Source of the DNA: an uncultured Eubacteriales bacterium
Lineage (GTDB): Bacteria; Acidobacteriota; Aminicenantia; Aminicenantales; Aminicenantaceae
Direction: 5' to 3'
Length of the DNA: 64,000 bases
Assembly (NCBI GenBank): GCA_964400735.1
Contig: CAYNVQ010000006.1
Span: 46,800-110,799, forward strand
Shown here: piece after piece, positions 13,530 through 64,000 of the stretch
How positions within the stretch are numbered: the first letter of the stretch is position 1
How the letters are laid out: each line of letters begins with the position of its first letter
Made by a program: the position numbers and the translations under genes
Notes under the pieces: model-generated
What the model was told of the DNA's origin: nothing
What the model saw: the letters and a program-made list of their open reading frames with translations, nothing else
The model's database searches: none

Positions 13530-13536
13530 GGTCCGC

Positions 13537-19349: not shown

Positions 19350-19455
19350 TGTTGGGATCTTTACAAAATAATTACAAATTTCTTACATGGCCATGACAAC
19401 CCAGAGATTTAAAAAGCTTATCTTCGGAGTGAAACAAAATCCGAGGAGGCAAACG

Positions 19456-24455: not shown

Positions 24456-24559
24456 GAAAGGCTCCACGGAAAATCCATGCAATATCCGATCAATCGTAAC
24501 CACAAAGCGAAAAAAAAGCATTATTATCCTCCTGTAAATAAAATTAAGGGAGGAATTCG

Positions 24560-32429: not shown

Positions 32430-33102
32430 AATATTGATCATCGAGGACGACAAAGCCATCCTCATGGGATTAAAAGATGATCTGGAATACGAGGGATACA
32501 AGGTCGCAATAGCCTTGAACGGGAAAGAGGGGCTTAAAATGGCCATGGAAGGGAAATTCCAGATGATTATCCTGGATATCCTGCTTCCCTGTTTGAACGG
32601 TTTCGAGGTGTGTAAGAAATTGAGGGAAGCAGGCGTCGGCACGCCTATTTTGATGCTGACGGCCGCCAAGACCGAGGAGATGGACAAGGTGACCGGGCTG
32701 GAACTGGGGGCAGACGATTATGTCACCAAGCCCATAGGGTCGCGGGAGATGGTGGCAAGAGTGAAAGCAATTTTGAGGAGAGTCAATCACAAGGGGGAAA
32801 CCGCAGATTTTCATGAATTCGGTGATATCACTGTTCATTTCAAAAGCCGGGAAGTTCAGAAGGCCGGGAAAAGAGTCCATCTGACCGCTTTGGAGTTCGA
32901 TCTCCTCACGTTTTTTATTGAGCATAAAGGAGAAGTGGTGACCAGAGATGCCATGCTGGATGAGGCGTGGGGGGATGCCATCGTCTCCCCCCGGACTATC
33001 GATCCTCACATCGTCCATTTGAGGCAAAAATTAGAAGATAATCCGGCCAACCCGAAGCATATCGTCAGCATCAGAGGGGTAGGGTATAAATTCAATGGAT
33101 GA
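32416..33102 (+). CDS. OmpR-family response regulator, module 5
   Basis: Starts in frame at 32416 (MKMDRILIIEDD) or at 32422 (MDRILIIEDD); both overlap the HK5 end. The C-terminus is SIRGVGYKFNG. It is about 60% identical to RR4 over the full length. Confidence 0.9.
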   Translation: MKMDRILIIEDDKAILMGLKDDLEYEGYKVAIALNGKEGLKMAMEGKFQMIILDILLPCLNGFEVCKKLREAGVGTPILMLTAAKTEEMDKVTGLELGADDYVTKPIGSREMVARVKAILRRVNHKGETADFHEFGDITVHFKSREVQKAGKRVHLTALEFDLLTFFIEHKGEVVTRDAMLDEAWGDAIVSPRTIDPHIVHLRQKLEDNPANPKHIVSIRGVGYKFNG

Positions 33103-33210
33103 AATTTTCACAACAAAAGCGCATCTCAATCGCAACAGAAGCTTAACCACGGGCTTTATGAGTTTTGATACGATTCCCTATGAAATGAAATTTTATAGGG
33201 AGGTCGAATA

Positions 33211-42542: not shown

Positions 42543-43228
42543 AACGGATTCTGATCGTCGAAGATGATGTGGCGATCCTGCGGGGGCTCAAGGACAACCT
42601 CGAGTATGAATCCTACGAGGTGATGACAGCCACGGATGGAGAACAGGGGTACTGCCTGATCCAGGAGAAAAAACCCGACTTGATCATCTTGGATTTGATG
42701 CTTCCCAAGATGAGCGGATACGAACTCTGCCGGAAAGTCCGTAAGGATGGAATCACGACGCCTATTCTGATGCTGACGGCAAGAGGGGAGGAAGTGGACC
42801 GGGTGCTGGGATTGGATTTGGGTGCCGATGATTATGTCACCAAGCCTTTTTCCGTGCCTGAGTTGCTGGCCAGGATACGGGCTATCATCCGCCGGGTCCA
42901 TCAGGCTAAGACAGGCGATTTGCCCAGCGATTTGCGGTTTGGCGATGTCGTCATAGATTTCAAGTGTTTTGAAGCCCGAAAGGACGAAAAGGTTTTGGAC
43001 TTGTCCCGCAAGGAATACGGCGTGCTCCGGCTTCTGGCTGCACGGGCGGGTGAGGTGGTAACCCGCGATGAGCTGCTGGATGAAGTGTGGGGTTATGACC
43101 AGTATCCCACCACACGAACAGTGGACAACCACATCTCTTTGCTGCGCACAAAACTCGAGGATGACCCATCTAATCCACACCACCTGATTACCGTTCATGG
43201 AGTCGGCTACAAGCTGGTTCTCGATTGA
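42539..43228 (+). CDS. OmpR-family response regulator, module 6
   Basis: MKRILIVEDD is present, with an ATGA overlap to HK6. The C-terminus is TVHGVGYKLVLD. Its closest paralog is RR3. Confidence 0.9.
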   Translation: MKRILIVEDDVAILRGLKDNLEYESYEVMTATDGEQGYCLIQEKKPDLIILDLMLPKMSGYELCRKVRKDGITTPILMLTARGEEVDRVLGLDLGADDYVTKPFSVPELLARIRAIIRRVHQAKTGDLPSDLRFGDVVIDFKCFEARKDEKVLDLSRKEYGVLRLLAARAGEVVTRDELLDEVWGYDQYPTTRTVDNHISLLRTKLEDDPSNPHHLITVHGVGYKLVLD

Positions 43229-43273
43229 TTCAGTTTTATTCTGCGGTTTGCCTCAGGGCAAAATTCGATAGAT

Positions 43274-43290
43274 ATGACATTTTCGTGACA
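43274..43290 (+). promoter_or_regulatory. Second copy of ATGACATTTTCGTGACA plus further GACATTTTG/TTTCGTGA repeats upstream of PD40 gene 43415
   Basis: The 17-mer is an exact match to 40485..40501. Additional TTTCGTGA (43303..43310) and GGACATTTTGCG (43330..43341) lie in the same 185-bp intergenic region. Confidence 0.35.
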
Positions 43291-43414
43291 AAAAACAGAA
43301 GGTTTCGTGAAAAACTTTTTACATAAAAAGGACATTTTGCGGAAAGTCTGATGACACAATTCAAAGCTGAAAGCGCTAGATTAGGGGTGAAAGCAAAATG
43401 AAAGGAGAGACTCC

Positions 43415-47814: not shown

Positions 47815-48138
47815 TTATGTTGAGATGTTTGGCAATGCGACATACTCGCAGTCATAAGCTGAGCAGTTGCTGGCCGCTGCCAAATCCAAGACCAGATCGG
47901 AAGGGGGAAGGATTTCTCGATCTTCCAAGGTTTTCAAGGCCGATTTCATAACCAGTTTGGCTTCTTCGAGTTTCAAGATACGGCGGCGGATATAGCCAGT
48001 CATGACGTTTCGAAACTCGCTCTGCCAAACAGGAGGAGCCACCCAGTAAGGATCTTTTTTTAGCGCCTGAAGAGCCAGTGCTGTCCTTTCGCTGTGGACG
48101 TGGATATGAATGATGATGTTCGTATCCACGACGATCAT
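47815..48138 (-). CDS. vapC: PIN-domain toxin (VapC-like); C-terminal region disrupted by an apparent -1 frameshift
   Basis: The N-terminus MIVVDTNIII carries the conserved first Asp. Later acidic residues are present (..SEFRN.., ..SAYDCEYVAL). After ...YVAL the -1 frame continues as AKHLNIKLLSGDDEILRSFPE..., a canonical PIN C-terminus with the fourth conserved Asp, down to a stop near 47732. The annotated frame terminates 7 codons after the shift, as PNIST*. Confidence 0.7.
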   Translation of the reverse strand: MIVVDTNIIIHIHVHSERTALALQALKKDPYWVAPPVWQSEFRNVMTGYIRRRILKLEEAKLVMKSALKTLEDREILPPSDLVLDLAAASNCSAYDCEYVALPNIST

Positions 48139-48377
48139 TTTCGGCCTTCATTCTTCCACAATTCGAGCTCTTCTTCCTGCAGACGATACTGGGCTGTCAG
48201 CTCGCGGATCTTCCGTGTCCGCTCCAATGTGGAGTCGACATCGATGGGTGGTGTTGTGAGTGCTCGTTCGATGATAGCGATAACTTCCTGATTGATGCTT
48301 CTGCGGTTGGCTTTGGCGCGTCGTTTCAGCCTCTCATAGACTTCTAAAGGAATATTTTTTATTGTCAATGTTGCCAT
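48135..48377 (-). CDS. vapB: Ribbon-helix-helix (Arc/FitA/VapB-like) antitoxin
   Basis: It is 80 aa. The N-terminus MATLTIKNIPLEVYERLKRRAKANRRSINQEVIAIIERAL follows the RHH beta-strand plus two-helix pattern. It overlaps the toxin start by 4 nt. Confidence 0.75.
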   Translation of the reverse strand: MATLTIKNIPLEVYERLKRRAKANRRSINQEVIAIIERALTTPPIDVDSTLERTRKIRELTAQYRLQEEELELWKNEGRK

Positions 48378-48549: not shown

Positions 48550-48828
48550 ATGGCAGAAGATGATCCAGTGAAGATTCCGATCGACGGGGTGCTTGATCTG
48601 CATGCGTTCAGCCCGAAAGATGTGAAGGACCTGGTGCCGGAATATTTGAGGGAATGCCGCAACCAGGGAATCTATCATGTCCGAATCATCCACGGAAAGG
48701 GGATAGGAACGCTCCAAAGGATCGTTCACAGCATTCTCGAAAAACATCCCCATGTCATAAGCTTCAAAACCGCCCATTACGGCGGAGGCGGCTGGGGAGC
48801 TACAGAAGTCGAACTGATTTCCAAATAA
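48550..48828 (+). CDS. Smr-domain small protein
   Basis: The Smr motifs are LDLHAFSPKDV...VRIIHGKGIGTLQRIVHSIL. Confidence 0.65.
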   Translation: MAEDDPVKIPIDGVLDLHAFSPKDVKDLVPEYLRECRNQGIYHVRIIHGKGIGTLQRIVHSILEKHPHVISFKTAHYGGGGWGATEVELISK

Positions 48829-49055: not shown

Positions 49056-51146
49056 CTATTTTTTGCCTTCCGGCAGAAAGTTTTCCATGACCCAGTATTC
49101 CGGGTAGGGCATGGAAAATCCTTCAGATGAAAATACGATCTCGTTGCCATTTGGGTGAACTTGGGGTTCGTCCGGATCGAGCATGGATAAACCAACCTCG
49201 AGCAATTCTCCTCCGTTGAGCGGTATGCGGCAAAACGCTTCTTGTCCCAATACATCTGATTTTTTGAAAAAGAGAATATATTGGCTGTCCGGAGTCCAAG
49301 TTAAGGCAATTGGAGCGCCCCCTCGTTGGTTGAACCGGCAGAGCACGCGCGGCTCTCCTCCTTCCGCAGGAATGATCTTCAGCTCCCGATCCAATTCACG
49401 CCCAATAAAGGCCAGCCATTTTCCATCTGGCGAAAGGGAAATATTCGCATAAGAGTGGGATGTCTGGTGTATTTTTTTCCTTTTTTCCGTTTCAAAATCG
49501 TAACGGCATATGAGGTCATTAGATTTGCCCTTTTCCCCTTGAATGTAAAAGAAAAATTTTCCGTCTGGTGTCCATTCACTGAAACGGTATTCTTCTTTTT
49601 CGGACGGCTTCGGCAACAGGATAGCTTTTATATCTTCTGTCTGAACATCGATCCTGAAGATTCCAGTCAATCTGGATTCGGTGATTCCCGATAAAAGAAT
49701 AGCTCGACCATCCGGAGACCACCGTGGATAGAAGGCTTTCACGTTAAGAGAGAATGTTTTCTCTTTTCCTGATCCCAGAGAGCGAATATGCAGGGATGAG
49801 CTGTAATGTCCAAAAGAACCACGAATGTAAGCCAGGTTTTTTCCATCAGGCGAATAGGCTGGGAAATCGTTGCTCCCCTCAGATGGGAGGTCCATCTTTT
49901 CTGGTGGATTTTGAATCTCTCCGGTCTCTGGATCGAGTGAAGAGGTGTAGATATCTTCCATCTCCTTTGAAGACATAAAATAAAAGGAGCCATCTTTACT
50001 GAAACCCAATGGAGTATTTACCGCTCCTCTTTTTACCAATAGGGGATCCCCTTGTGTTTTTCCATCGCTGATTGAAACTATCCAGGCATCGTCGGATCCC
50101 AATCGGCTGCTTTGAAAAAGAATCCATCGCCCATCAGGTGACCATCCGAGCATTTTTTCATTTGCAGGGTGCTCGATCAGAGGAATCTCTCTGCTTTCCT
50201 CCATAGCATACAGGTAAATATCGCTTTCAGGGCTTTTCTCCTCTTGAGGTTTTTCATAAGCGATATATCGGCCGTCTGGGGATATGTTTGTATTTCTTCC
50301 CAATTTAATTGGAATGGCTTGTGTTGTTTTATCCTTCAGAGACAACACCGCCCTTTGGTTTTCAAGCCCGTCTTTTGATAAAGCGATCAGAATTTGTTCA
50401 CCGTCAGGAAACCAGTCCAGCGGCCAGGCATACGCGATTTCTTCATTCTTATAGACCGTATAAGGTTTTTTATCTTCAATTCCTATGATTCTAATGTCTG
50501 AAAAAGACTTTCCGTGCCACCAATCATAGACAATCTTTTTTCCATCCGGGGACCAGGTGGAATAAAGGGGATAGCCAATTTCATTCTTTTGGTCGGTAAG
50601 AAGCTGTTTCTTTCCGGTGGTGAGATCTCGGATGGCCAGATTGTTCGTTTTCCAATCCACGATCGAGACATATCGTCCATCAGGGGAGACAGCACCCAGC
50701 CACCCGTCATAGAGGGTATCCGGTCCGGATACCAACTGCCTGACTTTTAATCCAGTGTCCCCTCTCTCGACGACTGCTCGAGCTCTAGCAAGAACAGAGA
50801 GTTTTTTGTTGGCCATTTTGACCGCTTCTGCCTGATCGGGATAGTTATCCACGACCTTCTGGAAAGCATTCTGGGCCTGTCTCAAACCCAGTTTTTCGTA
50901 ACATATCCCTACGAAATATTGTGACTTGGCGGCGTATTCTCTTTCGTTCGGATATTTGGCGATGATCTCCTCGAAGAGCTCGATGGCTGCGTTGAGATCT
51001 CCTTTGGTTTCCATGGTGTACTTGGCCTTTTCGAAAAGCACCTTGTGCTCTGAGGAGTTCTGGAACCCAAAGGCTGTGAAGATAAAGGCGGCCGCAAATA
51101 TGGCAAATAATGGAATGATTTGAATTAAAGTTTTTTTCCGGCTCAT
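49056..51146 (-). CDS. Secreted TPR-like plus PD40 beta-propeller protein, module 7, reverse strand
   Basis: The preferred start is the ATG at 51146..51144 behind GAGGAGG, giving MSRKKTLIQIIPLFAIFAAAFIFTAFG as signal peptide. The track start at 51233 is upstream in frame. The TPR-like N-domain includes AKSQYFVGICYEKLG. WSPDGK, SPDGR and HPNGN repeats are present. The C-terminus is YWVMENFLPEGKK. Confidence 0.8.
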   Translation of the reverse strand: MSRKKTLIQIIPLFAIFAAAFIFTAFGFQNSSEHKVLFEKAKYTMETKGDLNAAIELFEEIIAKYPNEREYAAKSQYFVGICYEKLGLRQAQNAFQKVVDNYPDQAEAVKMANKKLSVLARARAVVERGDTGLKVRQLVSGPDTLYDGWLGAVSPDGRYVSIVDWKTNNLAIRDLTTGKKQLLTDQKNEIGYPLYSTWSPDGKKIVYDWWHGKSFSDIRIIGIEDKKPYTVYKNEEIAYAWPLDWFPDGEQILIALSKDGLENQRAVLSLKDKTTQAIPIKLGRNTNISPDGRYIAYEKPQEEKSPESDIYLYAMEESREIPLIEHPANEKMLGWSPDGRWILFQSSRLGSDDAWIVSISDGKTQGDPLLVKRGAVNTPLGFSKDGSFYFMSSKEMEDIYTSSLDPETGEIQNPPEKMDLPSEGSNDFPAYSPDGKNLAYIRGSFGHYSSSLHIRSLGSGKEKTFSLNVKAFYPRWSPDGRAILLSGITESRLTGIFRIDVQTEDIKAILLPKPSEKEEYRFSEWTPDGKFFFYIQGEKGKSNDLICRYDFETEKRKKIHQTSHSYANISLSPDGKWLAFIGRELDRELKIIPAEGGEPRVLCRFNQRGGAPIALTWTPDSQYILFFKKSDVLGQEAFCRIPLNGGELLEVGLSMLDPDEPQVHPNGNEIVFSSEGFSMPYPEYWVMENFLPEGKK

Positions 51147-51242
51147 GGTGAAACCTCCTCGTTTTGATCTTTCACCATTCAATTTAACTCTTTTCCTCCC
51201 GCCTGCTGTCAAACAAACATAAACAAATGTCAAAGAATGTCA

Positions 51243-51929
51243 TCAGTCCATGAATCTGTAGCCTTCTCCGTAAACTGAAAGGATATGCCGGGGACGGGAG
51301 GGGTTCTCTTCGATTTTTTTTCTCAATTTCAAAATATGATTGTCTATGGTGCGGGTGGTGGGGAATTTCTCGTATCCCCAGATTTTATCCAGTAAGTCAT
51401 CCCTTTTGACCACTTCTCCCGGATAGGAAAGAAAATATCTGAGGATTTCCGCTTCCAGCGAAGTCAAATCCCACTCCTTTCCTGCACGCCTTATCTTGAA
51501 ATGGTTGAAGTCGATCTCCACATCTCCGAGAGTGTAGATATCTGGTATGGATCTGGTGCTTCTCTGTTCCCGTCTCAGGTGGGCCTTTATCCGTGCCAGA
51601 AGCTCGCGGATGCTGAAGGGCTTGGTGATGTAATCGTCGGCGCCGATCTCCAGCCCTACCACTTTATCGATCTCTTCTCCTTTGGCCGTGAGCATGATGA
51701 TGGGAGTGCCGATCTTTTTTTCCCTGAGCTGGCGGCAGACCTCCAGCCCGTCCTTTTTGGGGAGCATGATATCCAGGATGATCAATGCCGGTCTTTCTTT
51801 AAAGACTCGCTCGAGCCCCTGCTCTCCATCGGATGCCCAGGCTACATGATACCCCTCATCCTCCAAATTAAGCCTCAGTCCTTTGACCAGGTCCTCTTCA
51901 TCTTCGATGATCAATATCTTTTCTTTCAT
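51243..51929 (-). CDS. OmpR-family response regulator, module 7
   Basis: [13 protein letters not shown] is present. The phospho-acceptor lies in [19 protein letters not shown] is present. The C-terminus is [11 protein letters not shown]. Confidence 0.9.
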
Positions 51930-51938
51930 GGTGTATCC

Positions 51939-54047
51939 TTATCTGCCCTCAAGGGGCAGAATGATAGAAAAAGTGGTTCCTTCTCCCGGCTCGCTCTCCA
52001 CATCCACCCGCCCTCCATGGGCCTCGGTGATGTGCTTGACCAGGGTTAATCCCAGGCCGCTTCCCTTGGCCTCGGGCGAGAGCTTGTTTTTCGACCGGTA
52101 AAACCTGGTGAAGATCTTTTTGATTTCCTTGGGAGTTATACCGATTCCCTTATCTGATACTTGAAGTACGGCTCTCCCATTCTCTTTAAACAGCCTTACC
52201 GCAACTTCCTTTTTATCCGGAGAGAACTTCACCGCATTGTTCAAAAGGTTGATTAGAACGCTGGAGATGGCTTCCCGGTCGAAAAGCATTTCAGGAAGAT
52301 TGGAATCTATTCGGTCGTGAACTGAAAATCCTTTCTTCTCCAGATGGTAACGGTAGGATTCGAGAGTCTCTTTAACCGCCTCAGCCAGGTCGCCTATTTG
52401 AAAATCGAATTCTTTTCGTCCCATGTCGATCCTGGAGAAGTCAAGGACATTGTTGATCAGGTGGGAAAGGCGTTCGCTCTCTTTGGTGATGATCTCGTAA
52501 CATTCAGCTTTTTGGAGGTCTGAGAGGTTTTTTTTCCGCTGGAGGGTTTCTCCGTAGAGGCGGATGAGGGTAAGAGGCGTTTTCAATTCATGGGAAACGT
52601 TGTGGACAAACTCGGTTTTTTGGCGGGTGGCTTCCTTTTCCCGGGTGATATCCCGGGCGATGAGAATGGCCCCCAGAGCCAGGAGCGTCACGATCACGAA
52701 AAATAGAATGCCGTAAGCAAAGACATCTCGTTGGGCTGTTTGCTGGAGGTTTTCCAATCCCGGTTGGGCCACAGCGAGCTGCCAAGAAATAGGAAAATGC
52801 CGAAAAGAAAAGGTCAGAGAAGAAGCCTCAGAGACGTTATCTCTATTTGAAGATCGATCACTCTCATCTGTGATCCTGACCATAAGGCCTGTTTCTTTTT
52901 CGATGTTATTCAGAATTTGAGGGATGAGATTTTCCTTCAATAATCGAAGGTCCCAACAGAATCCTCCATGGCCGCCTCTATCCAGCTGAGAGAGTGCTCT
53001 ATAAGATATCATATAAGATTGATCTAAGTGGTGAGCGAGCAGGCGCTTAGGCTGGTCTTTTTCACTGACTGGAGTCAAGCTGACATTTTCTTTTATCCTG
53101 GGAATGACTTTTGTTTTTAAAAACTCGGCAAACAGCAGGGATTCCAGATAAGGAGATGCCCGGCTTTGGAGCGACCGGAAAGTTGCCTGAAGTTCGGGGA
53201 GATCATTTTCCCTTAGCCTATCTTCGATATCGGCCTCGATTTCTTCGATGAAAAGATCATAGGCCGGAATATCGATCAGCCATTTGCCGTTTTTGATATT
53301 TTCATATAGATGGAGTATGGCTTCGAGGCTTTTTGTCTCCTCTCCCATTTGCTGGCTGATTTCATAAAGCTGGAGAGAGGCCGTTATTCCGAAGGGATGC
53401 CCGGCTTTGTTTTTAAGATGACTGTATTCCCTGAGGAGTTGTTCGTAGACCTCCACAGCCCTATCATATTTTTTCATGGAAGCTAAGCATCTTCCTATTG
53501 CCTCTAAAGCTGTGGCCTTGTGCTGACTGGAAGGCGCCTTTTGATAGTATTCCTGATAGAGCTCAACAGCCTGGGTATAGTTTTTATCAGAGAACTCGAA
53601 GTTTTCGGCCTTCTGATATGATTCGCCGAGTGGTTGCTGAGACGAATCCATTTCTTCAAGAAATTCAGGTTTCTCATCTATTCCCGTCCGGGGAAAAAGG
53701 ATGAGGAAGTCCTCATCCAACAAAAAATATTTCCCCTTTTCTGAGCCGAATGGAATTTCTGTTTTCAAAGGAACGAATCTGCCTTTGTTTTCTTTAATCA
53801 AACTTGCGAAATTTTCTAAGCTCAATGTCTCACGTTCGTTTTCAAGAAGAGAGTTCTCGAGTGATTTAAGAGCGGTATTTCCTGATACCCAGAGATTTGA
53901 TTCCACAATCTGTTGAACCGTTTCTCTCCGCTGCGAAAAGGTCTTCATGCTCAGATAGGCGATGAGAAGGGAGGGAAAAATGATGGCGAGCAGAAAAATA
54001 ACAACGATTTTTTTTCCGCCGAAAGGACCAAAAAAGGACCTGTTCAT
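51939..54047 (-). CDS. Sensor histidine kinase, module 7, same two-TM architecture
   Basis: TM1 is [19 protein letters not shown]. The sensor domain carries [20 protein letters not shown] and [15 protein letters not shown]2 is [22 protein letters not shown]. The H-box is [21 protein letters not shown] is present. Confidence 0.85.
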
Positions 54048-54341: not shown

Positions 54342-57300
54342 ATGGAAGCACATAAGGTAAAATGCCCGCACTGTAATCACGAAAATCCTCCGAATATGAT
54401 CTATTGTGAAGAATGCGGGGAAATGCTCATCCACGTTAAGTACTCCCGAGAGCAGCCTTCCAAGTCCGGAGAAGAACCGGCTGCTTCTCCCGAACCTTCC
54501 GAGGTTTCCGATTCCTCTAAGGATACCTCCCAGCCTTCTTCCGAAGAACTGAAGTCCGGCGGTATGTTCGCTGGCCGCTATAAGATTTTGGGTAAGCTCG
54601 GCGAAGGGAAAACCAGCCACGTCTATAAAGTCATCGATTCAAAGACCGGCCAGGAAGTGGCCCTCAAATTGATCAAATCCGATAGCGCGCCGGATGATAG
54701 GACTTTCAAGCGCATACAAAAAGAATTCAAAACTGTAAGAAAATTGTCCCATAAGCATATCTGCCGGATGGTTCACCTGGGTACCTTCAAGGGAACCCGC
54801 TACGTCACCATGGAATATTTAGCCGGCGAGCCATTAAAGGATGCCATAAAAAGAATGGGGCAGTTCACCTTCAGAAAGTCCCTGTTTACGGCCAAGCAGA
54901 TTTGCGAAGGGCTTGCCGAGGCCCACCGAATGGGTGTTATCCACGGGAACCTTAAGCCGCAGAATATCAAGGTCGACGAATTCGGGAACGTCCACATCAT
55001 GGACTTCGGATTGACCGGTTTTACAAAAGGTGAAAAAAAGAATGATGCAGCCTACAGATCCCCGGAGCAAATGAGAGGAGAGGAGATCGACCGAAGGACG
55101 GATATCTATTCATTAGGTATCATTCTCTATGAGATGTTGACAACCAGGTTGCCTATATCCGGAGAAATCCCCATAAGCCTTGCGCAGGAACAACAAATCC
55201 CCGGAAGCTTCAGCCGGATGATTCTCAAATGCCTCGTGAAAGAAAAGGAAAACAGGATACAGAGCGCCGAGGAGATTCTTGAAGTATTGAACAATCTCGA
55301 TACGGAAGCCCCTTCCACCGAAAAGGTTGTGCCGGAGAGAAAACCTGCCTTCACAAAAAAGAGAGCTGTCAGATTCGATGGGCGGAAATTCCTGGTTCCC
55401 GGATTGATCGCTGTGGGTGTGGTTGTTGTCGCTATCCTCGTCTGGCAATTCATGATTGTTCAAAAGATAGGTTCCGTACCTGAAGGAAAACCCTCCCTGG
55501 CTGTCGTGTATTTCGAAAACAGCACTGCCGATAAAAGTATCGATTACTGGGGAAGAATGATTGCGGAATCCTTCACAGCCGATTTAGGTCAGTCGAAGTA
55601 TTTGGATGTATCGAGCAGCGAAAAATTGTATGCTGTTCTGGACGAGCTGGGTCTGCTGAAGGCAAAGACCTATACCCCGCCAGTACTAAAAAATGTGGCA
55701 AGAATAGCGGGCGTCGATTATATCATTTTCGGAAATTACGCTAAAAAGGGTGAGCTCGTAAGCCTTCAAATCTTTCTCAGAAAAATACAAAAGGAAAAGC
55801 CTGTGGCTTCTTGGTCGGAAGATTTTAGTGGAGGGGATAGCCTTTTCACGGCCGTGGACGGGCTGACGAAAAAGATCAAGCAGCGATTCAAGCTCAAAAA
55901 GGAACAGCTTGCCGATGATTTGGACAGAGAGGTGTCTCAGATCACGACAGGTTCGCCTGAGGCATTTAGGTACTATCTTGAAGGACAAAGGAGTTATCTC
56001 GAGAGGAATTACCAGCAGAGTATGGAGTCGATGAAAAAAGCGGTCGCTATCGATCCAGAGTTCGCTCTGGCCTATAAATACCTGACCATGGCCTATGTTC
56101 GTCTGGGCCTTTCTTCGGAACGAGAGGAGGCTTTCCAGAAAGTCATGGACTTGAGCGATCGAATAGCGGAAAAAGAGCTGTACACCTTGGAAGGAGATTA
56201 TTTCCTGGAGTCGGAGGAGACCTATGATAAGGCCATTGAGGCCTTTACAAAATTAACCCAGCTTTATCCCGACGATTCCACCGCCCGTCTCAATCTAGGC
56301 GGCATTTATTTCACGATCGAAGAATTGGATAAGGCTCTGGAACAGTTCGAACAGATCAAAGGAGACCAGGCTGAAACCTTCAACACTTTCGCTTTGATAG
56401 CCGATATCTACATGATGGAGGGCTTATACGACAGGGCGGAGGAAGGCCTCAGGAATTATTTGAACAATTTTTCCGATAAAGGTTGGACCCATCATTTTCT
56501 GGCCTTCACCTACATCGCGGAAGGAAATTCTTATTTTGCTCAAAATGAAATCGATGAGGCATCTGTCCTTGATCCCCAAAATCCTTTGAGCCCTTATCTC
56601 AAAGGCGTGTATTTTACATTGACCGGTTCCTTTGTCGATGCAGAGAAAGAATACCAGAGGCTACTGAAGAGAAAAGACATCTCTGGTTCTTATTTAGGAT
56701 ACCATGGCCTAGCCAATTTAAAGCTGGTGCAGGGGCGGCTCCGTGAGTCCAGAGAGTATCTTAACGAAGTGATAGCATTGTCCAGGAAAATAGGAGTGCA
56801 GTGGATAGAGTCTCAGGCGCTTTCGATATTGGCTTTGCGGCTCTTAGAAGCGGGGAGCCCCCAGAATGCGTTGAGAGTGTGCAACCTGGCGTCGGATGCC
56901 GCTACCAGTGCAGGGAGACTCGATCTTCAGAGGCTGGCACTGCATTACAAAGGGCTGGCCTATGTTGTCTTGAGGTCTTTCTCAAGAGCAAATAGAACGG
57001 CCGAACAGCTGAAAGAGCTTATCGAGAAAGGGAGTCATGAGAAAGAAATAAGGCGCTACCATCATCTTATAGGAATGATTGAGCTGGAAAGAAAGGACTA
57101 TTCCAAGGCCATCGAAAACCTGGAGCTGGCTTTGTCTCTTCTCCCCCATCAATCATCGCTGGGGAATGAGGCCCATATAAGGAATTCCCAAGCTTTGTTC
57201 ATCAATTCTTTGGCTCTGGCTTATTACAGGTCTGGGGACCTGGAAAGAGCTGTCGAACAGTATGAGCGGATCAACAGCCTGACCTCGGGGAGGCTTTTTT

Positions 57301-57482
57301 TCGGGTATATCTTTGCCAAGAGTTTTTATACGCTCGGCAGGATATACCAGAATCTTGGCAACAATGCCAAAGCTGAAGAGAATTACAACAAATTTCTGGC
57401 TCTCTGGTTCAATGCCGATCCTGGCATTTCTGAGGTCAATGATGCTAAAAATCGTCTAACCCGGCTGAATAGGACGCCTTGA
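54342..57482 (+). CDS. Membrane Ser/Thr-protein-kinase-like protein (predicted pseudokinase): N-terminal zinc ribbon, kinase-like domain with HGN in place of HRD, one TM helix, large extracytoplasmic TPR domain
   Basis: The zinc ribbon is KCPHCNHENPPNMIYCEECG. A Ser/Pro/Glu-rich linker follows. The kinase subdomains are the Gly loop LGEGKTSHVY, VAIK as VALKLIK, and a catalytic loop VIHGNLKPQNI in place of HRDLKPxNI. DFG and SPE are present. The TM helix is LVPGLIAVGVVVVAILVW. About 650 aa of TPR-like repeats follow. Confidence 0.8.
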   Translation: MEAHKVKCPHCNHENPPNMIYCEECGEMLIHVKYSREQPSKSGEEPAASPEPSEVSDSSKDTSQPSSEELKSGGMFAGRYKILGKLGEGKTSHVYKVIDSKTGQEVALKLIKSDSAPDDRTFKRIQKEFKTVRKLSHKHICRMVHLGTFKGTRYVTMEYLAGEPLKDAIKRMGQFTFRKSLFTAKQICEGLAEAHRMGVIHGNLKPQNIKVDEFGNVHIMDFGLTGFTKGEKKNDAAYRSPEQMRGEEIDRRTDIYSLGIILYEMLTTRLPISGEIPISLAQEQQIPGSFSRMILKCLVKEKENRIQSAEEILEVLNNLDTEAPSTEKVVPERKPAFTKKRAVRFDGRKFLVPGLIAVGVVVVAILVWQFMIVQKIGSVPEGKPSLAVVYFENSTADKSIDYWGRMIAESFTADLGQSKYLDVSSSEKLYAVLDELGLLKAKTYTPPVLKNVARIAGVDYIIFGNYAKKGELVSLQIFLRKIQKEKPVASWSEDFSGGDSLFTAVDGLTKKIKQRFKLKKEQLADDLDREVSQITTGSPEAFRYYLEGQRSYLERNYQQSMESMKKAVAIDPEFALAYKYLTMAYVRLGLSSEREEAFQKVMDLSDRIAEKELYTLEGDYFLESEETYDKAIEAFTKLTQLYPDDSTARLNLGGIYFTIEELDKALEQFEQIKGDQAETFNTFALIADIYMMEGLYDRAEEGLRNYLNNFSDKGWTHHFLAFTYIAEGNSYFAQNEIDEASVLDPQNPLSPYLKGVYFTLTGSFVDAEKEYQRLLKRKDISGSYLGYHGLANLKLVQGRLRESREYLNEVIALSRKIGVQWIESQALSILALRLLEAGSPQNALRVCNLASDAATSAGRLDLQRLALHYKGLAYVVLRSFSRANRTAEQLKELIEKGSHEKEIRRYHHLIGMIELERKDYSKAIENLELALSLLPHQSSLGNEAHIRNSQALFINSLALAYYRSGDLERAVEQYERINSLTSGRLFFGYIFAKSFYTLGRIYQNLGNNAKAEENYNKFLALWFNADPGISEVNDAKNRLTRLNRTP

Positions 57483-57595: not shown

Positions 57596-57889
57596 ATGTT
57601 TGCACGCGTGACTTCCGCCAGGATAGATAAGGATAAGATCGAGCAATTGAAAAAAATTTATGAAGAGAACGTGGTTCCTGCAGCAAAAAAGCAGAAGGGA
57701 TTCAAGGGAATTTGCCTAATGGTCGATCGAAAGACTGGAGAGGCTTTATCCATCAGTTACTGGGCCACCCAGGAAGATGTTCTGACAACCGAGAAAAATC
57801 TGTACTACCAGCAACAGGTGGCCAGGTTCCTTCCTTATTACACCCGCGATCCCATCCGCGAAGGCTACGAAGTGCTCATCCAGGAATAG
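57596..57889 (+). CDS. Small ABM/Dabb-like (ferredoxin-fold) protein, copy 1
   Basis: It is 97 aa and behind the RBS taggagggtttttATG. Its beta-alpha-beta pattern, MFARVTSARIDKD..GFKGICLMVDRKTGEALSISYWATQEDVLT, resembles antibiotic-biosynthesis-monooxygenase-type domains. It is 45-50% identical to copy 2. Confidence 0.55.
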   Translation: MFARVTSARIDKDKIEQLKKIYEENVVPAAKKQKGFKGICLMVDRKTGEALSISYWATQEDVLTTEKNLYYQQQVARFLPYYTRDPIREGYEVLIQE

Positions 57890-58180: not shown

Positions 58181-58474
58181 ATGTTTGCACGCTGCACGAC
58201 TATGCGATTCAAGATCGCTTTTATAGATAAAGCTATCGATATTTATAACCAAAGCATCCTTCCTGCTGCGAAATCACAGAAAGGATTCATGGGGCTCAAT
58301 TTTTTCCTGGACAGAAAGACGGGAAGAGCGGTTTCCATCGCTATCTGGGAAAGCGAAGAAGATGCCTTAGCCAATGAAAAGAGTCATTACTACCAGGAGC
58401 AGCACATCAAATTGATGAGCCTTTATTCCATGCCGCCCATTCGCGAAGGCTTCGAAGTTATCGTCAGAATATAG
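58181..58474 (+). CDS. Small ABM/Dabb-like protein, copy 2
   Basis: It is 97 aa and behind the RBS gatggagggataaatcATG. Its own putative promoter, TTGACA-N16-TAAGAT, lies at about 58056..58084. Shared segments with copy 1 include MFAR.T..R......D......I.PAAK.QKGF.G........TG.A.SI..W...ED.L..EK..YYQ......L.....PIREG.EV. Confidence 0.55.
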   Translation: MFARCTTMRFKIAFIDKAIDIYNQSILPAAKSQKGFMGLNFFLDRKTGRAVSIAIWESEEDALANEKSHYYQEQHIKLMSLYSMPPIREGFEVIVRI

Positions 58475-58720: not shown

Positions 58721-61165
58721 ATGAGACGGTCGATATGTCTTCTTTTCGTATTGATTGCAACGGCTTCATTTTTATCGGCTGAACTTCCCGCCATCAGCCA
58801 GAAAACAGCCGGCATGAAAAAATATTCCGGCTTCTTTAACTTTTATTGGGATGCCGGTGCCGGCAAGATTTGGCTGGAGGTCGATAAATTCGATACCGAA
58901 TTTCTGTATGTGAGCTCTTTGCCAGCCGGCATCGGATCGAATGAAATTGGGCTGGATGGCCGCCAGATGGGAGAAACCCGCGTCGTTTATTTCCAGCGCA
59001 TGGGCCCGAAAATTCTGCTCGTTCAACCGAATTATTCCTTCCGGGCGACCTCTGACAATCCTGCTGAACGAAGGGCTGTGGAGGAAGCCTTTGCCCAGTC
59101 GATTATTTGGGGATTCAAAGCCGAGGCAGAAGAAGGAGACCGGGTCATGGTGGACGCCACACCGTTCTTGATGGAGGATGCTCATGGGGTAATCCCTAGA
59201 CTCCAACGAGCCGGTCAGGGAAATTTCAGAGTCGACTCGACACGCTCCTCAATCTATTTGCCCCGAACCAGAAACTTTCCCCGAAATACAGAGATTGAGA
59301 CCATTCTGACTTTCACCGGCCAGAATCCGGGAATGTTGCTCCGCCAGGTTGTGCCTGATCCGAGCTCGCTCACTGTCAGGCAGCACCACTCCTTCATCCA
59401 ACTTCCTGATGATGGCTACGAGCTTCGCATGTACGATCCACGTTCCAACTTCTTCGGGATGACCTATCTGGATTTCTCGGCACCCATCGACCAGCCTTTG
59501 ACTAAAGCCTTTATCGCGCGCCACAGGCTTAAAAAGAAGGACCCGAACGCCGAAGTGAGCGACCCTGTCGAGCCCATCGTCTATTATGTGGATCCCGGAG
59601 TTCTGGAGCCCATACGGTCGGCTCTAATCGAGGGAGCGAGCTGGTGGAATCAGGCTTTCGAGGCCATAGGATACCATAACGCCTTTCAGGTTAAAGTCCT
59701 TCCCGAAGATGCCAATCCCATGGATATCCGTTACAACATGATCAACTGGGTACACCGCTCTGCCCGGGGTTGGTCTTACGGATCGTCGGTCACGGACCCC
59801 AGAACTGGAGAGATCCTGAAAGGGCACGTGGCCCTCGGGTCACAGCGCCTACGCCAGGATTTCTTGATTGCCCAGGGCTTGGTGGCCGAATACGATGGAA
59901 GCCCAGAAGCTTCCCAGGAAATGGTGGAGCTGGCCCTGGCCCGCATCCGGCAGCTATCCTGCCACGAAGTCGGCCACACCCTCGGAATGGGGCACAACTA
60001 TGCGGCCAGCGTCAATGACCGGGCATCGGTCATGGATTATCCCCACCCCTTGGTCAAGATTGATGCGGATGGCTCGCTGGATCTTTCCGATGCTTATGCT
60101 ACGGGAATAGGCGAATGGGACAAGGTTTCTATAGCCTATGGGTACCAAGATTTTCCTGAAGGCGTCGATGAAGAAAAAGAACTGAGAAAGATTCTCGACG
60201 ATGCCTTCTCCAGAGGACTGGTTTTTCTGGCCAGCCAGGATGCCGGTCCTTCCAGCGCCCATCCGCTCGCGGCGACATGGGATAACGGAAAGGACCCTGT
60301 GAACGAGCTGGAACGGCTGATGAAAATAAGGGCCATTGCCCTTCAGGATTTTTCACAAAAAAGAATCCCCATGTGGGCGCCCATGGCCACTCTGGAAGAG
60401 GTTTTGGTGACAACCTATCTCTTTCATCGATACCAGGTAGAGGCGGCCGCCAGCGTTCTGGGAGGCCTCATCTACAATCACAGGCTCCGGGGAGATATCC
60501 AGAAGAACCCTCAGATCGTCCCGTCGGAGGAGCAGAGACGGGCCCTGGATGTGATTCTCAAGACCGTTGCTCCGGCGAATTTGGCTATCGACGAGAAAAT
60601 TCTGGGCATCATTCCGCCCCGGCCTCCGGGATACCGGCAAACGCGGGAGCTTTTTTCCGGGTATACCGGTATGACCTTCGATCCTCTGGGGGCTGCCGAA
60701 GCAGCTGCTAATCTGACCATAGGATTGATCCTCCGCCCGGAAAGGTCCGCCCGGCTCGTGGATTATCATGCCAGGAACAGCGATTATCCCGGTTTTGGAG
60801 AGGTTTTGGACAAGATTATCGAATTTACCTGGAAGAAGACCTACGAATCCGGGAAATTGGCGGAGATCCAGCGGGTAGTCAACAATGTGGTTTTGTATCA
60901 TCTGATGAGCCTGGCTGCAGATGAGAGGAACGCCCCACAAGTCAGGGCCATCGCTTTCGCCAAACTGGATGGACTGAATAGGTGGCTCAAAGGGCAAATA
61001 AACCGTAAAATCGATAGTCTGTCTTTTACAGAAGATGCCAATCAAAGGGCCCATTTTATCTATGCCAGCGGAAAGATCGATCTGTTTCAGAAAGACCCCA
61101 CAAAAATCACGCTTCCGGCTCCCCTTTATCCTCCGCCCGGACCCCCCATCGGGATGGTCGATTGA
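58721..61165 (+). CDS. Secreted zinc metalloprotease, metzincin-like HExxHxxGxxH
   Basis: The signal peptide is MRRSICLLFVLIATASFLSA. The extended zinc-binding motif is HEVGHTLGMGHN. A candidate Met-turn, SVMDY, follows. It is 814 aa with long flanking domains. Confidence 0.75.
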   Translation: MRRSICLLFVLIATASFLSAELPAISQKTAGMKKYSGFFNFYWDAGAGKIWLEVDKFDTEFLYVSSLPAGIGSNEIGLDGRQMGETRVVYFQRMGPKILLVQPNYSFRATSDNPAERRAVEEAFAQSIIWGFKAEAEEGDRVMVDATPFLMEDAHGVIPRLQRAGQGNFRVDSTRSSIYLPRTRNFPRNTEIETILTFTGQNPGMLLRQVVPDPSSLTVRQHHSFIQLPDDGYELRMYDPRSNFFGMTYLDFSAPIDQPLTKAFIARHRLKKKDPNAEVSDPVEPIVYYVDPGVLEPIRSALIEGASWWNQAFEAIGYHNAFQVKVLPEDANPMDIRYNMINWVHRSARGWSYGSSVTDPRTGEILKGHVALGSQRLRQDFLIAQGLVAEYDGSPEASQEMVELALARIRQLSCHEVGHTLGMGHNYAASVNDRASVMDYPHPLVKIDADGSLDLSDAYATGIGEWDKVSIAYGYQDFPEGVDEEKELRKILDDAFSRGLVFLASQDAGPSSAHPLAATWDNGKDPVNELERLMKIRAIALQDFSQKRIPMWAPMATLEEVLVTTYLFHRYQVEAAASVLGGLIYNHRLRGDIQKNPQIVPSEEQRRALDVILKTVAPANLAIDEKILGIIPPRPPGYRQTRELFSGYTGMTFDPLGAAEAAANLTIGLILRPERSARLVDYHARNSDYPGFGEVLDKIIEFTWKKTYESGKLAEIQRVVNNVVLYHLMSLAADERNAPQVRAIAFAKLDGLNRWLKGQINRKIDSLSFTEDANQRAHFIYASGKIDLFQKDPTKITLPAPLYPPPGPPIGMVD

Positions 61166-61427: not shown

Positions 61428-64000
61428 ATGATCAAAAAAATGATACCGGTATTTTGTCTTGCTATGTGTCTTGTTTTCCTGGTTTCATCCTTGTCGGCAC
61501 AGGACGAAAACCTTTTCAATGAGGAGCTTCTGAAGTTTTTCACCTTCCGTGAACTGGGTCCGGCCGTGCAGGGATCGCGGATCCTGGATATCGAGGTTCC
61601 TTCGGAAAAGCCTTATACTTTTTACGTTTCGTTCGCAACAGGAGGGTTGTGGAAGACGGAAAACAACGGGACCACCTTTACTTCCCTATTCGACCATCAA
61701 GCCGCACCGGCAATAGGGGATGTGGCCATCGCTCCTTCCAATCCTGATATAGTATGGATAGGGACGGGAACAGCAGCTTCGGGACGTTTGACCATAAAGG
61801 GGGCCGGCGTTTTCAAATCCGTGGATGGAGGGAAGTCCTGGAAATATCAGGGACTGCGGGAAACCCGACACATAGGCCGGATCTCCATCCATCCCCATAA
61901 CCCGGACATCGTGTATGTGGCGGCCCTGGGATATCACTTCAGCTACAATCAAGAACGAGGCCTCTTCAAGACCACAGACGGAGGAGTGACCTGGGAGAAG
62001 GTCCTCTACATCAGCGATAAAGTCGGGGTGGTGGAGGTGGTCCTGGACCCCAAAAATCCGGATACGGTGTATGCAGCCTCCTACGACAAATGGCGGCTTC
62101 CCTGGCATTTCGAGGAATCCGGCCCGGAAACCGCCATCTATAAATCCTCGGATGCGGGCAAAACCTGGAAAAAATTGAGCAACGGCCTTCCCATAGGAAA
62201 ACTTGGGCGGATCGGTCTGGCTATATACCCTAAGAATCCAAATATCCTGTATGCCATTATCGAAAATGCCAACATGCGCCCTCCCACCGAGGAAGAGGCG
62301 AAGAGAGACGAAGAGCGCGGCGAGGAGCCCCAGGAGAGGAGAATCGGAGGTGAGCTCTACCGCACCGAAGATGCCGGGGAGACCTGGAAAAAAATAAATT
62401 CCACTGAAGATAATCTGGGCGGAGGCAAGTGGTACGGACAAGTCAGGGTGGATCCCAACAACGACCAAGTGGTCTATGTCTTGAACACCCCTCTCCAGAG
62501 GTCGGCGGACGGAGGCGAAACCTGGGGAAAAAGGGGAGTCGAAAATATCGCCCGTAACGTCCACGTGGACCATCATGTGGTGTGGATAGATCCGGAAAAT
62601 TCGGATCATATCATCCTGGGAAACGATGGAGGCCTGGCGGTGACCTATGACTGGGGAAAGACCTGGGATGTTTATGAAAATATTCCAGGAGCCCAGTTCT
62701 ATGCCATTGGCGTAGACATGGATGAACCCTACCATATCTACGGCGGGACCCAGGACACTGGATCGATGAAGATTCCGAGCAACAGCGTCTACGGAGAGAT
62801 CACGCGGGAGGACTGGGCCTCGGTCGGAGGTGGAGACGGTATGTACAATCAGGTGGATCCCAATGACAGCCGATGGCTGTATAACGATTACCAATTGGGA
62901 GCCATCCAGCGTTTCGATCAAAAGTTGGGGCGGGGAACCAGCATCCGTCCTAGAAGAGAAAGCGGGGAAAAACCCTACAGGTTCAACTGGACAGCACCGA
63001 TTCATATCTCTCCCCATAACAGCCGGATCATCTATCTGGGCGCCGAAGTGCTTCTCCGGTCTATCAACCGGGGAGCCGACTGGCAGGAGATAAGCGCGGA
63101 CCTGACCACCAACGACCCCGAGAAACTCAAAGGAAACATCGAGCACTGCAACATCACCACGATTTCCGAATCTCCTTTGACACCGGGAATTATCTGGGTC
63201 GGAACGGATGACGGTAAGGTGCAGCTCACCAGAGATGGCGGGGGGAACTGGACCGATACTACGGCCAACCTCACCCAGGCCGGAGCTCCGGAGGATTTCT
63301 GCGTGAGCCGGGTCTTCGCCTCCCATCACGATGAGGGAACGGCCTATGTGGTCAAGACAGGATTCCAGAGAGACGATTTCCGGCCCTTCATCCACAAAAC
63401 CACGGATTTCGGTCAAACCTGGATTTCCATCTCTGGAGACCTGCCCGACGGAGTGGTCCATGTTATCGTAGAAGACAGAAAAAATCCAAACCTTCTCTTT
63501 GTGGGCAAGGAATTCGGTGTTTGGGTGTCTATAGAAGGGGGCGACAGATGGGTGCGCCTGATGAACAACATCCCCACCCAGGATATCTATGACCTCGTGA
63601 TCCATCCACGGGAGAATGATCTCGTGGTCGGGACCTACGGCCGGGGGATATATGTAGCGGACATCACGCCCCTTCAAGAGATGAGCGAAGAAGTATTGGC
63701 GAAAGAGATGCATCTTTTCGATGTGGAGCCTAAAATACAGTGGATATACAAGCAGAGGCAGAATTCTGCCGGACAAAGACACTTCACCGCTTCCAACGAA
63801 ACGAACGGGATCGTGGTCAATTACTATCTGAAAGAGAAGATAAAAGATTCCGTACGGGTATTGATCAAAGATCTGGTGGGAAACGAATTGGCGGCTTTGA
63901 AGGGCATGTCTGGTTCGGGGTTGCATAAGGTGGTCTGGGACATGCGCAAACAGTTGACCAAGGAAGAGATGGATCAAATGGACGCTGCTTCCCGGTTTCG
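61428..64000 (+). CDS. Secreted BNR/Asp-box repeat protein (sortilin/Vps10-like or sialidase-like beta-propeller); 3' end outside the window
   Basis: An uninterrupted + strand frame runs from the ATG at 61428 to the window end, over 857 codons, and the ORF track omits it. The RBS is aaggaggtcctATG. The signal peptide is MIKKMIPVFCLAMCLVFLVSSLSAQ. Nine or more Asp-box motifs (S/T-x-D-x-G-x-T/S-W) are present: SVDGGKSWK, TTDGGVTWEK, SSDAGKTWKK, TEDAGETWKK, SADGGETWGK, TYDWGKTWD, TRDGGGNWTD, TTDFGQTWIS and SIEGGDRWVR. The listed 763-aa minus-strand ORF 61686..63977 is its antisense shadow. Confidence 0.8.
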   Translation, partial: MIKKMIPVFCLAMCLVFLVSSLSAQDENLFNEELLKFFTFRELGPAVQGSRILDIEVPSEKPYTFYVSFATGGLWKTENNGTTFTSLFDHQAAPAIGDVAIAPSNPDIVWIGTGTAASGRLTIKGAGVFKSVDGGKSWKYQGLRETRHIGRISIHPHNPDIVYVAALGYHFSYNQERGLFKTTDGGVTWEKVLYISDKVGVVEVVLDPKNPDTVYAASYDKWRLPWHFEESGPETAIYKSSDAGKTWKKLSNGLPIGKLGRIGLAIYPKNPNILYAIIENANMRPPTEEEAKRDEERGEEPQERRIGGELYRTEDAGETWKKINSTEDNLGGGKWYGQVRVDPNNDQVVYVLNTPLQRSADGGETWGKRGVENIARNVHVDHHVVWIDPENSDHIILGNDGGLAVTYDWGKTWDVYENIPGAQFYAIGVDMDEPYHIYGGTQDTGSMKIPSNSVYGEITREDWASVGGGDGMYNQVDPNDSRWLYNDYQLGAIQRFDQKLGRGTSIRPRRESGEKPYRFNWTAPIHISPHNSRIIYLGAEVLLRSINRGADWQEISADLTTNDPEKLKGNIEHCNITTISESPLTPGIIWVGTDDGKVQLTRDGGGNWTDTTANLTQAGAPEDFCVSRVFASHHDEGTAYVVKTGFQRDDFRPFIHKTTDFGQTWISISGDLPDGVVHVIVEDRKNPNLLFVGKEFGVWVSIEGGDRWVRLMNNIPTQDIYDLVIHPRENDLVVGTYGRGIYVADITPLQEMSEEVLAKEMHLFDVEPKIQWIYKQRQNSAGQRHFTASNETNGIVVNYYLKEKIKDSVRVLIKDLVGNELAALKGMSGSGLHKVVWDMRKQLTKEEMDQMDAASRF

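Follow-up and report, generated by a model that had tools for sequence, protein, structure and literature searches.

Pseudokinases are defined in sequence by the lack of at least one of three residues, the VAIK lysine, the HRD aspartate and the DFG aspartate (PMC4718504; 10.1101/2025.01.12.632604). HER3, in which asparagine takes the place of the catalytic aspartate (Asp166 to Asn815), and the JH2 domain of JAK2 keep the K, N and D residues, bind ATP with approximately micromolar Kd (about 1 uM for HER3) and act allosterically; HER3 is an allosteric activator of EGFR/HER2, and both proteins retain weak autophosphorylation (PMC4718504). Here we describe a bacterial gene with this constellation of residues, located at 54342..57482 (+) in a 64,000-nucleotide stretch of DNA (the window) from an uncultured bacterium of the Aminicenantaceae (assembly GCA_964400735.1, contig CAYNVQ010000006.1, positions 46,800 to 110,799). 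From its open reading frame (ORF), its Pfam architecture and full-length relatives at 100% coverage, we assign it as a receptor-type Ser/Thr pseudokinase gene. The architecture is fixed in the family and consists of a cytoplasmic zinc ribbon, a kinase domain, one transmembrane helix, a periplasmic domain with a predicted LpoB/TolB-N-like fold, and a solenoid of tetratricopeptide repeats (TPRs).

Seven conserved pseudokinase families have been described in bacteria (ActPs1, ActPs2, ActPs3 (MviN), GLW, CP1, DYD and DLHK), and pseudokinase sequences are also scattered inside canonical families (10.1101/2025.01.12.632604; PMC12599244). All seven families show substitution of the VAIK lysine (in 34–100% of members), and most also lack the DFG aspartate (10.1101/2025.01.12.632604). 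EssB/YukC of T7SSb (type VII secretion) is a single-pass membrane protein with a cytoplasmic pseudokinase domain, which is a scaffold or dimerisation module. To our knowledge very few bacterial pseudokinases have been studied experimentally. Bacterial pseudokinases are an established category, and the group described here is of a kind known in principle; the Atlas preprint (10.1101/2025.01.12.632604) and PMC12599244 do not mention Acidobacteria, and the latter mentions neither TPR nor HGN/HRN.

Asparagine replaces the catalytic-loop aspartate

The kinase domain (residues 80–313; 54579..55280, +) matches the Pfam Pkinase model PF00069 over the whole domain and above the curated threshold (E=1.6e-45; score 156 bits, cutoff 31.7 bits; model positions 1–258 of 263), which places it in the Hanks-type fold. 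Its best phmmer matches in the PDB are StkP, a PknB-like kinase and PknB (9ruj, 4eqm and 1mru), with E values of 2e-38 to 8e-35, or roughly 1e-38 to 1e-35. VIHGNLKPQNI pairs without gaps to IVHRDLKPQNI of StkP (9ruj) and of the PknB-like kinase (4eqm), and H201-G202-N203 is therefore the true HRD position. The catalytic loop, V-I-H201-G202-N203-L-K-P-Q-N208, occupies 54936..54965 (+), as supported by the gap-free alignment with StkP, the DNA, and the table of homologs. The HGN triplet is encoded by CAC GGG AAC at 54942–54950, such that the catalytic-base Asp is replaced by Asn203 (AAC) and the RD Arg by Gly202 (GGG). These are the location and the two substitutions that the original prediction, made from the letters of the window, had proposed. 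No second motif of the form H-x-[DN]-[LIV]-K-[PAS]-x-N is present in the six frames of the 64-kb window, and together with the gap-free alignment this rules out that the true catalytic loop lies elsewhere.

Other kinase motifs were also predicted to be intact, and for the VALK lysine (K109; 54666..54668, +), the alphaC glutamate (E128) and D221-F-G this is so; N208, K205 and S240-P-E are present as well, and K109 is kept in all nine members of the group that share the Asp to Asn change. The Gly-rich loop, G87-E-G-K-T-S-H-V94 (54600..54623, +), is degraded relative to the family consensus GxGGMGxV. It had been described as kept, which holds for the remaining GxGxxS pattern (GEGKTS, with Ser for the third Gly), but not for G90, M91 and G92, which are 100% invariant in 110 canonical relatives and are all changed here (G90K, M91T and G92S). 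The activation segment from D221-F-G to S240-P-E (55002..55067, +) is 7 residues shorter than in relatives in the family alignment, and both R226 and the G234-T235 P+1 motif are lost. Of the features of a competent kinase, the protein therefore has the set of beta3 Lys, alphaC Glu, loop Asn and DFG Asp, and lacks the HRD Asp and the GxGxxG loop.

Absence of the HRD Asp at the aligned position makes the protein a pseudokinase by the sequence definition given above, in agreement with the signature noted originally. The accompanying description as catalytically dead says more than a sequence can, given that the ATP-site K, E and N and the acidic DFG residue are retained. An annotation of this genome should leave it out of the tally of active "protein kinase" genes.

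The substitution defines a single clade

A search of 5.8 billion proteins gave 4640 hits at E<=1e-10, and residues were tallied in the best 120 of these. Nearly all of the 120 have the same full-length architecture, and those named by organism are all Aminicenantes metagenome-assembled genomes but one, which is labelled Hodarchaeota. At the HRD position, the 120 hits and the query read HRD in 110 cases, HRN in six, HGN in four (the query, its own database copy P0001, P0002 and P0004) and HGD in one. All nine of the closest clusters, which are 54–74% identical and come from independent metagenomes, have Asn at the catalytic base, and HRD is found in 110 of the 111 more distant relatives. The existence of nine independent Asn-carrying clusters rules out a private mutation or a sequencing error; the full-length ORF is intact (1043–1062 residues) across these nine diverged lineages.

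In neighbor-joining (NJ) trees, the Asn forms constitute a single clade that is sister to a canonical HRD clade (P0010–P0035), with bootstrap support of 100/100 when only ectodomain columns are used and 99/100 when only kinase columns are used. An artificial grouping caused by convergent Asp to Asn changes is ruled out by the ectodomain-only result. Within the clade we distinguish sub-clade A, consisting of the query and P0002–P0006, and sub-clade B, consisting of P0007–P0009. The query and P0002 are sisters (99/100) and P0004 groups with HRN sequences; because query/P0002 and P0004 branch separately, R202G arose twice, after loss of the Asp. Conservation of HGN among orthologs had been put forward as a check on the original prediction, and the outcome favours a selected pseudokinase, with the qualification that the Asn is clade-wide and Gly202 is found only in the query, P0002 and P0004. 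We conclude that the Asp to Asn change in HRD occurred in the ancestor of one small clade. Its presence in 9/9 clusters, the monophyly of its carriers (100/100) and the purifying selection described below together indicate a selected pseudokinase trait and not a private one. A scan of GTDB species genomes gave just the genome of P0021, one fragment, and one spurious TPR match, and a literature search found no paper joining Aminicenantes with this kinase family.

We then compared the neighbourhoods of three Asn forms (L001, L002 and L003) and of two HRD forms of the sister clade (L004 and L005). Asn and HRD loci have in common the order [Smr]-kinase-ABM-ABM-(DUF4953 Met-zincin)-(Sortilin/BNR)-amine oxidase-M24 peptidase-(RraA-like), and the window has a matching downstream gene order. 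Because gene order is common to L001–L005, members of the Asn clade are positional orthologs of those in the HRD sister clade, and the Asp to Asn change thus arose inside one ortholog lineage, not in a relocated spare duplicate. From sequence and gene order, the gene is the positional ortholog of a predicted active receptor Ser/Thr kinase, which occurs in great numbers among Aminicenantes-like bacteria.

The kinase domain is eroded stepwise under purifying selection

Within the kinase domain, 96 positions are at least 95% invariant in the 110 canonical relatives. The query keeps 68 of these, sub-clade A as a whole 51, and sub-clade B 72. The lost positions cluster at G90/M91/G92 in the Gly-rich loop, at F125 of the alphaC "RF" motif, at R202 and D203, at F222, I224, A225 and R226 following DFG, and at G234, T235 and M239 in the P+1 loop. 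All nine Asn members keep K109, R124, E128, H201, N208, G223, SPE, D254 and R305, and position 221 is acidic (D or E) in each; together these residues make up the nucleotide/Mg pocket and the core of the structure. Losses are graded across the clade: sub-clade B has the Asp to Asn change plus few others, the remaining losses are in sub-clade A, and the query and P0002 add the 7-residue deletion in the activation loop. The P+1 Thr235, R226 and the G-loop Met are each lost in 6/6 members of sub-clade A, and DFG is replaced by ELG in P0002, DIG in P0003 and EFG in P0005.

Several of these positions are connected in function. R202 (the HRD Arg) and R226 (the DFGIAR Arg) are residues that, from PknB structures, we take to bind the activation-loop phosphothreonine, and in PKA-type kinases a hydrogen bond links the P+1 Thr to the catalytic Asp. 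Joint loss of R202, R226 and the P+1 Thr would be expected from the point at which phosphotransfer and activation-loop control cease to matter. The G-loop Met and the RF-Phe are likewise replaced together in sub-clade A, and packing of the RF-Phe on the G-loop Met is a hallmark of bacterial Ser/Thr kinases (10.1101/2025.01.12.632604). An acidic residue near the former P+1 Gly-Thr (KDA/NDA in the closest sub-clade) was considered as a relocated base or pseudosubstrate lock; the alignment is ambiguous there and we make no such claim.

Rates of change also differ between the two sister groups. Kinase-domain identity is 76.6% in sub-clade A and 89.3% in the HRD sister clade, at ectodomain identities of 73–76% in both. 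By the Nei-Gojobori method, sub-clade A pairs have a dN of 0.15 in the kinase domain and 0.15–0.17 in the TPR region, compared with 0.066 and 0.121 respectively for an HRD pair, and dN/dS of the pseudokinase domain is roughly 0.075–0.11. These values suggest that constraint on the kinase domain is relaxed about two-fold, yet is still strong, consistent with a domain that is used and not decaying.

Comparison with described kinases and pseudokinases

PknB and StkP, which give the best kinase matches, also have a cytoplasmic N-terminal kinase, one transmembrane helix and an extracytoplasmic sensor, and the RF motif, the G-loop Met and the DFGIAR Arg are found both in PknB/StkP and in the canonical relatives of this gene. 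The protein differs from them in having Asn for the catalytic Asp; in the loss of the RD Arg, DFGIAR Arg, P+1 Thr, G-loop Met and RF-Phe; in having an LpoB-like plus TPR sensor instead of PASTA; and in an additional N-terminal zinc ribbon. It is not a Stk1/PknB PASTA kinase (NF033483), scoring 220 bits against a cutoff of 450, with the match confined to the kinase part and no PASTA present.

The resemblance to HER3 and JAK2 JH2 lies in the Asn at the catalytic base together with the kept beta3 Lys, loop Asn and DFG Asp; the catalytic loop of JAK2 JH2, LIHGNVCAKN, contains the same HGN triplet, as checked in its sequence. This combination is the sequence mark of the HER3/JAK JH2 type, and the comparison is a functional analogy only. 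HER3 is a single-pass receptor too, although it has lost the alphaC Glu that is kept here, and the two have opposite membrane orientations, the kinase domain of our protein being N-terminal to the transmembrane helix. The resemblance is convergent, with no common descent beyond that of the kinase superfamily.

Like the seven bacterial families (ActPs1–3, GLW, CP1, DYD and DLHK), many of which are membrane-associated, the clade is Hanks-type with degraded catalytic motifs. It is set apart by the descriptions of those families, in that the VAIK Lys that they substitute is kept, along with the Glu and the acidic DFG residue, and the HRD Asp and regulatory elements are lost. EssB shares the single-pass arrangement, but none of the three catalytic motifs is left in it, and its Gly loop is gone as well; close active orthologs are lacking, its ectodomain is of another kind, and it belongs to a secretion machine. 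The clade is best filed as a young, lineage-specific pseudokinase group inside a canonical receptor Ser/Thr kinase family of an uncultured phylum.

Proposed function of the pseudokinase domain

We favour the interpretation that the protein is a non-catalytic, probably nucleotide-binding receptor pseudokinase similar to HER3 or JAK2 JH2, and consider this reasonably likely from the pattern of lost and kept residues. In the ancestor of the small clade, the catalytic-base Asp of HRD was replaced by Asn. Stepwise erosion followed in elements whose only importance is for phosphotransfer or its activation-loop control, affecting the G-loop Met/RF-Phe pair, R202 and R226, the P+1 Gly-Thr and, in the query and P0002, 7 activation-loop residues. 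Purifying selection still acts on the fold, the zinc ribbon, the nucleotide-pocket residues (K109, E128, N208 and D/E221) and the ectodomain. On the favoured interpretation, signalling would no longer occur through phosphorylation of a substrate. A periplasmic partner may bind the LpoB-like/TPR ectodomain, and this binding could be passed over the membrane by altering the conformation or oligomeric state of the pseudokinase domain, which would probably have nucleotide bound. Towards active paralogous kinases of the same family, that domain might then play the part of scaffold, dimerisation partner, allosteric regulator or substrate, in parallel with HER3 working with EGFR/HER2. The more specific proposal that the clade is a bacterial counterpart of HER3, a nucleotide-binding pseudokinase that allosterically controls active paralogous receptor kinases, is a tentative one that we put forward by analogy.

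A number of points weigh against this interpretation. Asn in place of the catalytic Asp need not abolish activity, to judge from the weak autophosphorylation of HER3 and JAK2 JH2, and with all ATP/Mg-binding residues kept, autophosphorylation in cis could occur at a low level. That there are active partner kinases is an assumption based on how large the family is (4640 hits at E<=1e-10), and the 64-kb window contains no other such kinase. The trees are simple NJ distance trees, and dS is 0.9–2.0, which is near saturation and makes the dN/dS figures rough. The claim about activity is drawn from sequence, and the ectodomain ligand is hypothetical.

If the interpretation is right, positional orthologs with HRD, with HRN, and with HGN plus the loop deletion would form a natural stepwise series from kinase to pseudokinase, ordered as the Asp to Asn change; then loss of the RD pocket, of G-loop/alphaC coupling and of the P+1 Thr; and then shortening of the activation loop. 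Conserved families described so far all lose the ATP-binding Lys, whereas this clade has lost only the catalytic base and the machinery of activation-loop control. Since active orthologs at the same locus survive in sister lineages, HRD, HRN and HGN forms would provide a clean comparative system, and the comparison could show which changes follow the loss of catalysis and which parts of the fold are kept for non-catalytic signalling.

The same evidence bears on other explanations. One is that the protein is a low-activity or atypical kinase that still signals by phosphorylation, for instance through slow cis-autophosphorylation of Ser/Thr residues in the juxtamembrane or linker regions, with Asn203 orienting the substrate hydroxyl. 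Intact K109, E128, K205, N208 and D221, with residue 221 acidic in all nine members, agree with this, as do the strong purifying selection on the kinase domain and the weak autophosphorylation of HER3 and JAK2 JH2, which have the same Asn (PMC4718504). The loss of Thr235, R226 and the G-loop Met throughout sub-clade A, the change of DFG in three members, including the closest relative with its ELG, and the approximately two-fold faster evolution of the kinase domain than in HRD orthologs argue in the other direction, and we regard residual kinase signalling as unlikely. Faster evolution and stepwise erosion of motifs would also be seen if the domain were a decaying relic that is being lost from a protein with no signalling role. 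This is very improbable given the intact ORF of 1043–1062 residues in nine diverged lineages, dN/dS of 0.075–0.11, the invariant core residues D254, R305, SPE and H201, and the preserved synteny. Most improbable of all is that the fold has been repurposed for other ATP chemistry such as AMPylation (as in SelO) or glutamylation (as in SidJ). Pseudokinases in which K, N and D are retained are capable of other reactions (PMC12599244), and the nucleotide-pocket residues are kept here; SelO and SidJ, however, represent deeply divergent families, whereas this protein has 50–60% identity to ordinary PknB-like kinases and shows neither insertions nor new conserved motifs. In addition, DFG varies inside the clade at both Asp and Phe, and no clade-specific candidate catalytic residue is established.

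An additional possibility, raised by the original prediction, is that the protein is a dedicated allosteric partner of the adjacent module 7 (49056–54047, −), which contains histidine kinase (HK), response regulator (RR) and propeller genes. The gene is indeed divergent from the HK of this module (51939..54047, −; Pfam HisKA and HATPase_c), with a 294-bp spacer. An HK-RR pair is also found directly upstream in L004, where it is divergent as in the window, and in L001, where it is on the same strand between Smr and the kinase gene; moreover, TPR elements occur in the HK, the propeller protein and the pseudokinase protein alike. The adjacency is not conserved, however. Smr is directly upstream in L002 and L003, and L005, which has Smr and one small ORF upstream, lacks any HK-RR within 10 kb. 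In the window, an Smr-domain gene (48550..48828, +; 88% identity in tblastn with the L001 Smr protein) lies beyond the inverted module, which separates it from the kinase gene, so that the module is interposed in this lineage. Further, the window contains seven such modules, and only one has a pseudokinase neighbour. Synteny therefore lends no support to coupling with module 7, and the variable HK-RR adjacency among L001–L005 argues against an ancestral functional pairing; cross-talk could still occur, but a dedicated partnership is improbable. The genes that accompany the kinase gene from locus to locus encode the two downstream ABM-like proteins and, in most loci, the Met-zincin; the HK-RR module is not among them.

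Gene model and domain architecture

The ORF listing gives 1046 residues plus stop from an ATG at 54342, with the coordinates originally reported. The public gene call (P0001; 1028 residues, 100% identical) begins at Met19 and omits the first 18 codons (54342–54395), which removes the first CxxC and halves a conserved zinc ribbon. This cytoplasmic C4 ribbon (54363..54416, +) matches Pfam Zn_Ribbon_1 at residues 7–27 with 24.1 bits, slightly below the cutoff of 25. Its cysteines are arranged as C8-x2-C11...C22-x2-C25, 115 of 120 relatives have the CxxC...CxxC pattern, and the region is 84–94% identical inside the closest sub-clade. Because the pattern is so widely conserved we take the ATG at 54342 to be the right start; orthologs favour the 1046-residue model. 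The original assignment of a C4 ribbon is thereby upheld, as is that of a single transmembrane helix. The HRD sister clade (P0010–P0035) has a lysine-rich tail of 15–50 residues (MKKKPAKK...) ahead of the ribbon, which is short in the HRN sub-clade B and does not occur in sub-clade A, including this gene.

Between the ribbon and the kinase domain is a low-complexity linker rich in Ser, Pro and Glu (residues 33–75; 54438..54566, +), which is weakly conserved (16–53% identity to relatives). The transmembrane helix (residues ~350–373; 55389..55460, +) is the only hydrophobic segment in the protein, with a Kyte-Doolittle maximum of 2.84 in a 19-residue window. There are six Lys/Arg residues in the 15 positions before it and one after, and because of this bias we place the N-terminus in the cytoplasm and the C-terminus in the periplasm.

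The ectodomain (residues 376–1046) had been described as a TPR domain of 650 residues. It is large, at 671 residues, and TPRs fill residues 536–1046, but the first ~157 residues form a non-TPR alpha/beta region that precedes the ~510 residues of TPR. The alpha/beta region (residues 379–535; 55476..55946, +) has no Pfam or NCBIfam match. An AlphaFold2 model built with a 26-sequence family alignment has a mean predicted local distance difference test score of 80 and a predicted template-modelling score of 0.76. In a Foldseek search of the PDB the top match to the model is the C-terminal domain of LpoB (4q6l; E=5.5e-8, probability 1.00), and the next are GNA1162, the N-domain of TolB, PelC and CsgG, with E values of 5.5e-8 to 1e-5 and TM-scores of 0.49–0.65. 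The juxtamembrane domain is thus predicted to have an LpoB-C/TolB-N-like fold. The alpha/beta folds of LpoB-C, TolB-N, GNA1162 and PelC are periplasmic protein-binding modules of the envelope; sequence identity to them is just 12–19%, and the LpoB-like domain is here fused to a transmembrane helix and a TPR solenoid, not to a lipid anchor or beta-propeller.

The TPR solenoid (residues 536–1046; 55947..57479, +) is matched by multiple Pfam TPR families across residues ~540–1025, for example TPR_2 at E=8.7e-25, and is 73–81% identical inside the closest sub-clade. In the Asn clade the ectodomain is conserved at least as much as the kinase domain, which fits a retained sensing or binding role. 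The protein does not belong to TIGR04510 (putative peptide-modification-system cyclase), which it matches with 101.6 bits against a cutoff of 400 and only over ectodomain residues 392–734.

Gene neighbourhood

Two ABM-like genes follow the pseudokinase gene, each encoding 97 residues, at 57596..57889 (+; Pfam ABM E=9.6e-5, slightly below the cutoff) and 58181..58474 (+; also slightly below threshold), the second being a paralog of the first (46% identity). Both are downstream of the kinase gene in 5/5 related loci, in HRD and HxN forms alike, and are the most constant neighbours. Next is a DUF5118/DUF5117/DUF4953 Met-zincin (58721..61165, +), assigned by Pfam and synteny, whose N-terminus is hydrophobic and resembles a signal peptide by eye. 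It is downstream in 4/5 related loci, and L003 has an unannotated 846-residue gene in its place. Together with the usual Sortilin/BNR, amine oxidase and M24 peptidase genes, the zincin may constitute an extracellular protein/peptide-processing set. A 762-residue ORF at 61686–63977 (−) matched neither Pfam nor NCBIfam models at the thresholds applied, and NCBIfam gave no names to the ABM-like proteins, the zincin or this ORF. Promoter and terminator scans near the gene did no better than shuffled sequence (6 vs 7.0 expected, and 7 vs 5.8 expected).

The seven HK-RR-propeller modules are at 1724–6827, 11391–16510, 16672–21546, 21632–26734, 30243–35313, 40572–47706 and 49056–54047 (−). Each encodes a histidine kinase of ~710 residues with periplasmic TPRs, an OmpR-type response regulator of ~230 residues, and a protein of ~720 residues with TPRs and a PD40/Tricorn-like propeller; the sixth has an additional propeller gene. 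In L001 and L003, too, modules of this kind are found on the flanks of the orthologous kinase locus. A PIN/RHH toxin-antitoxin pair (47815–48138, −, and 48135–48377, −) is located near the Smr gene.

A member of the more distant HRD group, P0042 (L006), lies elsewhere, in a tandem array of kinase paralogs. This array (2517–23108 of L006) has at least seven tandem kinase-TPR genes and adjoins an FHA-GAF-SpoIIE (PP2C) gene, which places the family in an extensive Ser/Thr phospho-signalling network of these bacteria. Within the HRD sister clade, P0025 has undergone a separate, independent degeneration, with HGD for HRD, NFG for DFG, LDEGSIG as its Gly loop, LNPHN for LKPQN, and a shortened activation loop; from this example the family appears prone to yielding pseudokinase-like members.

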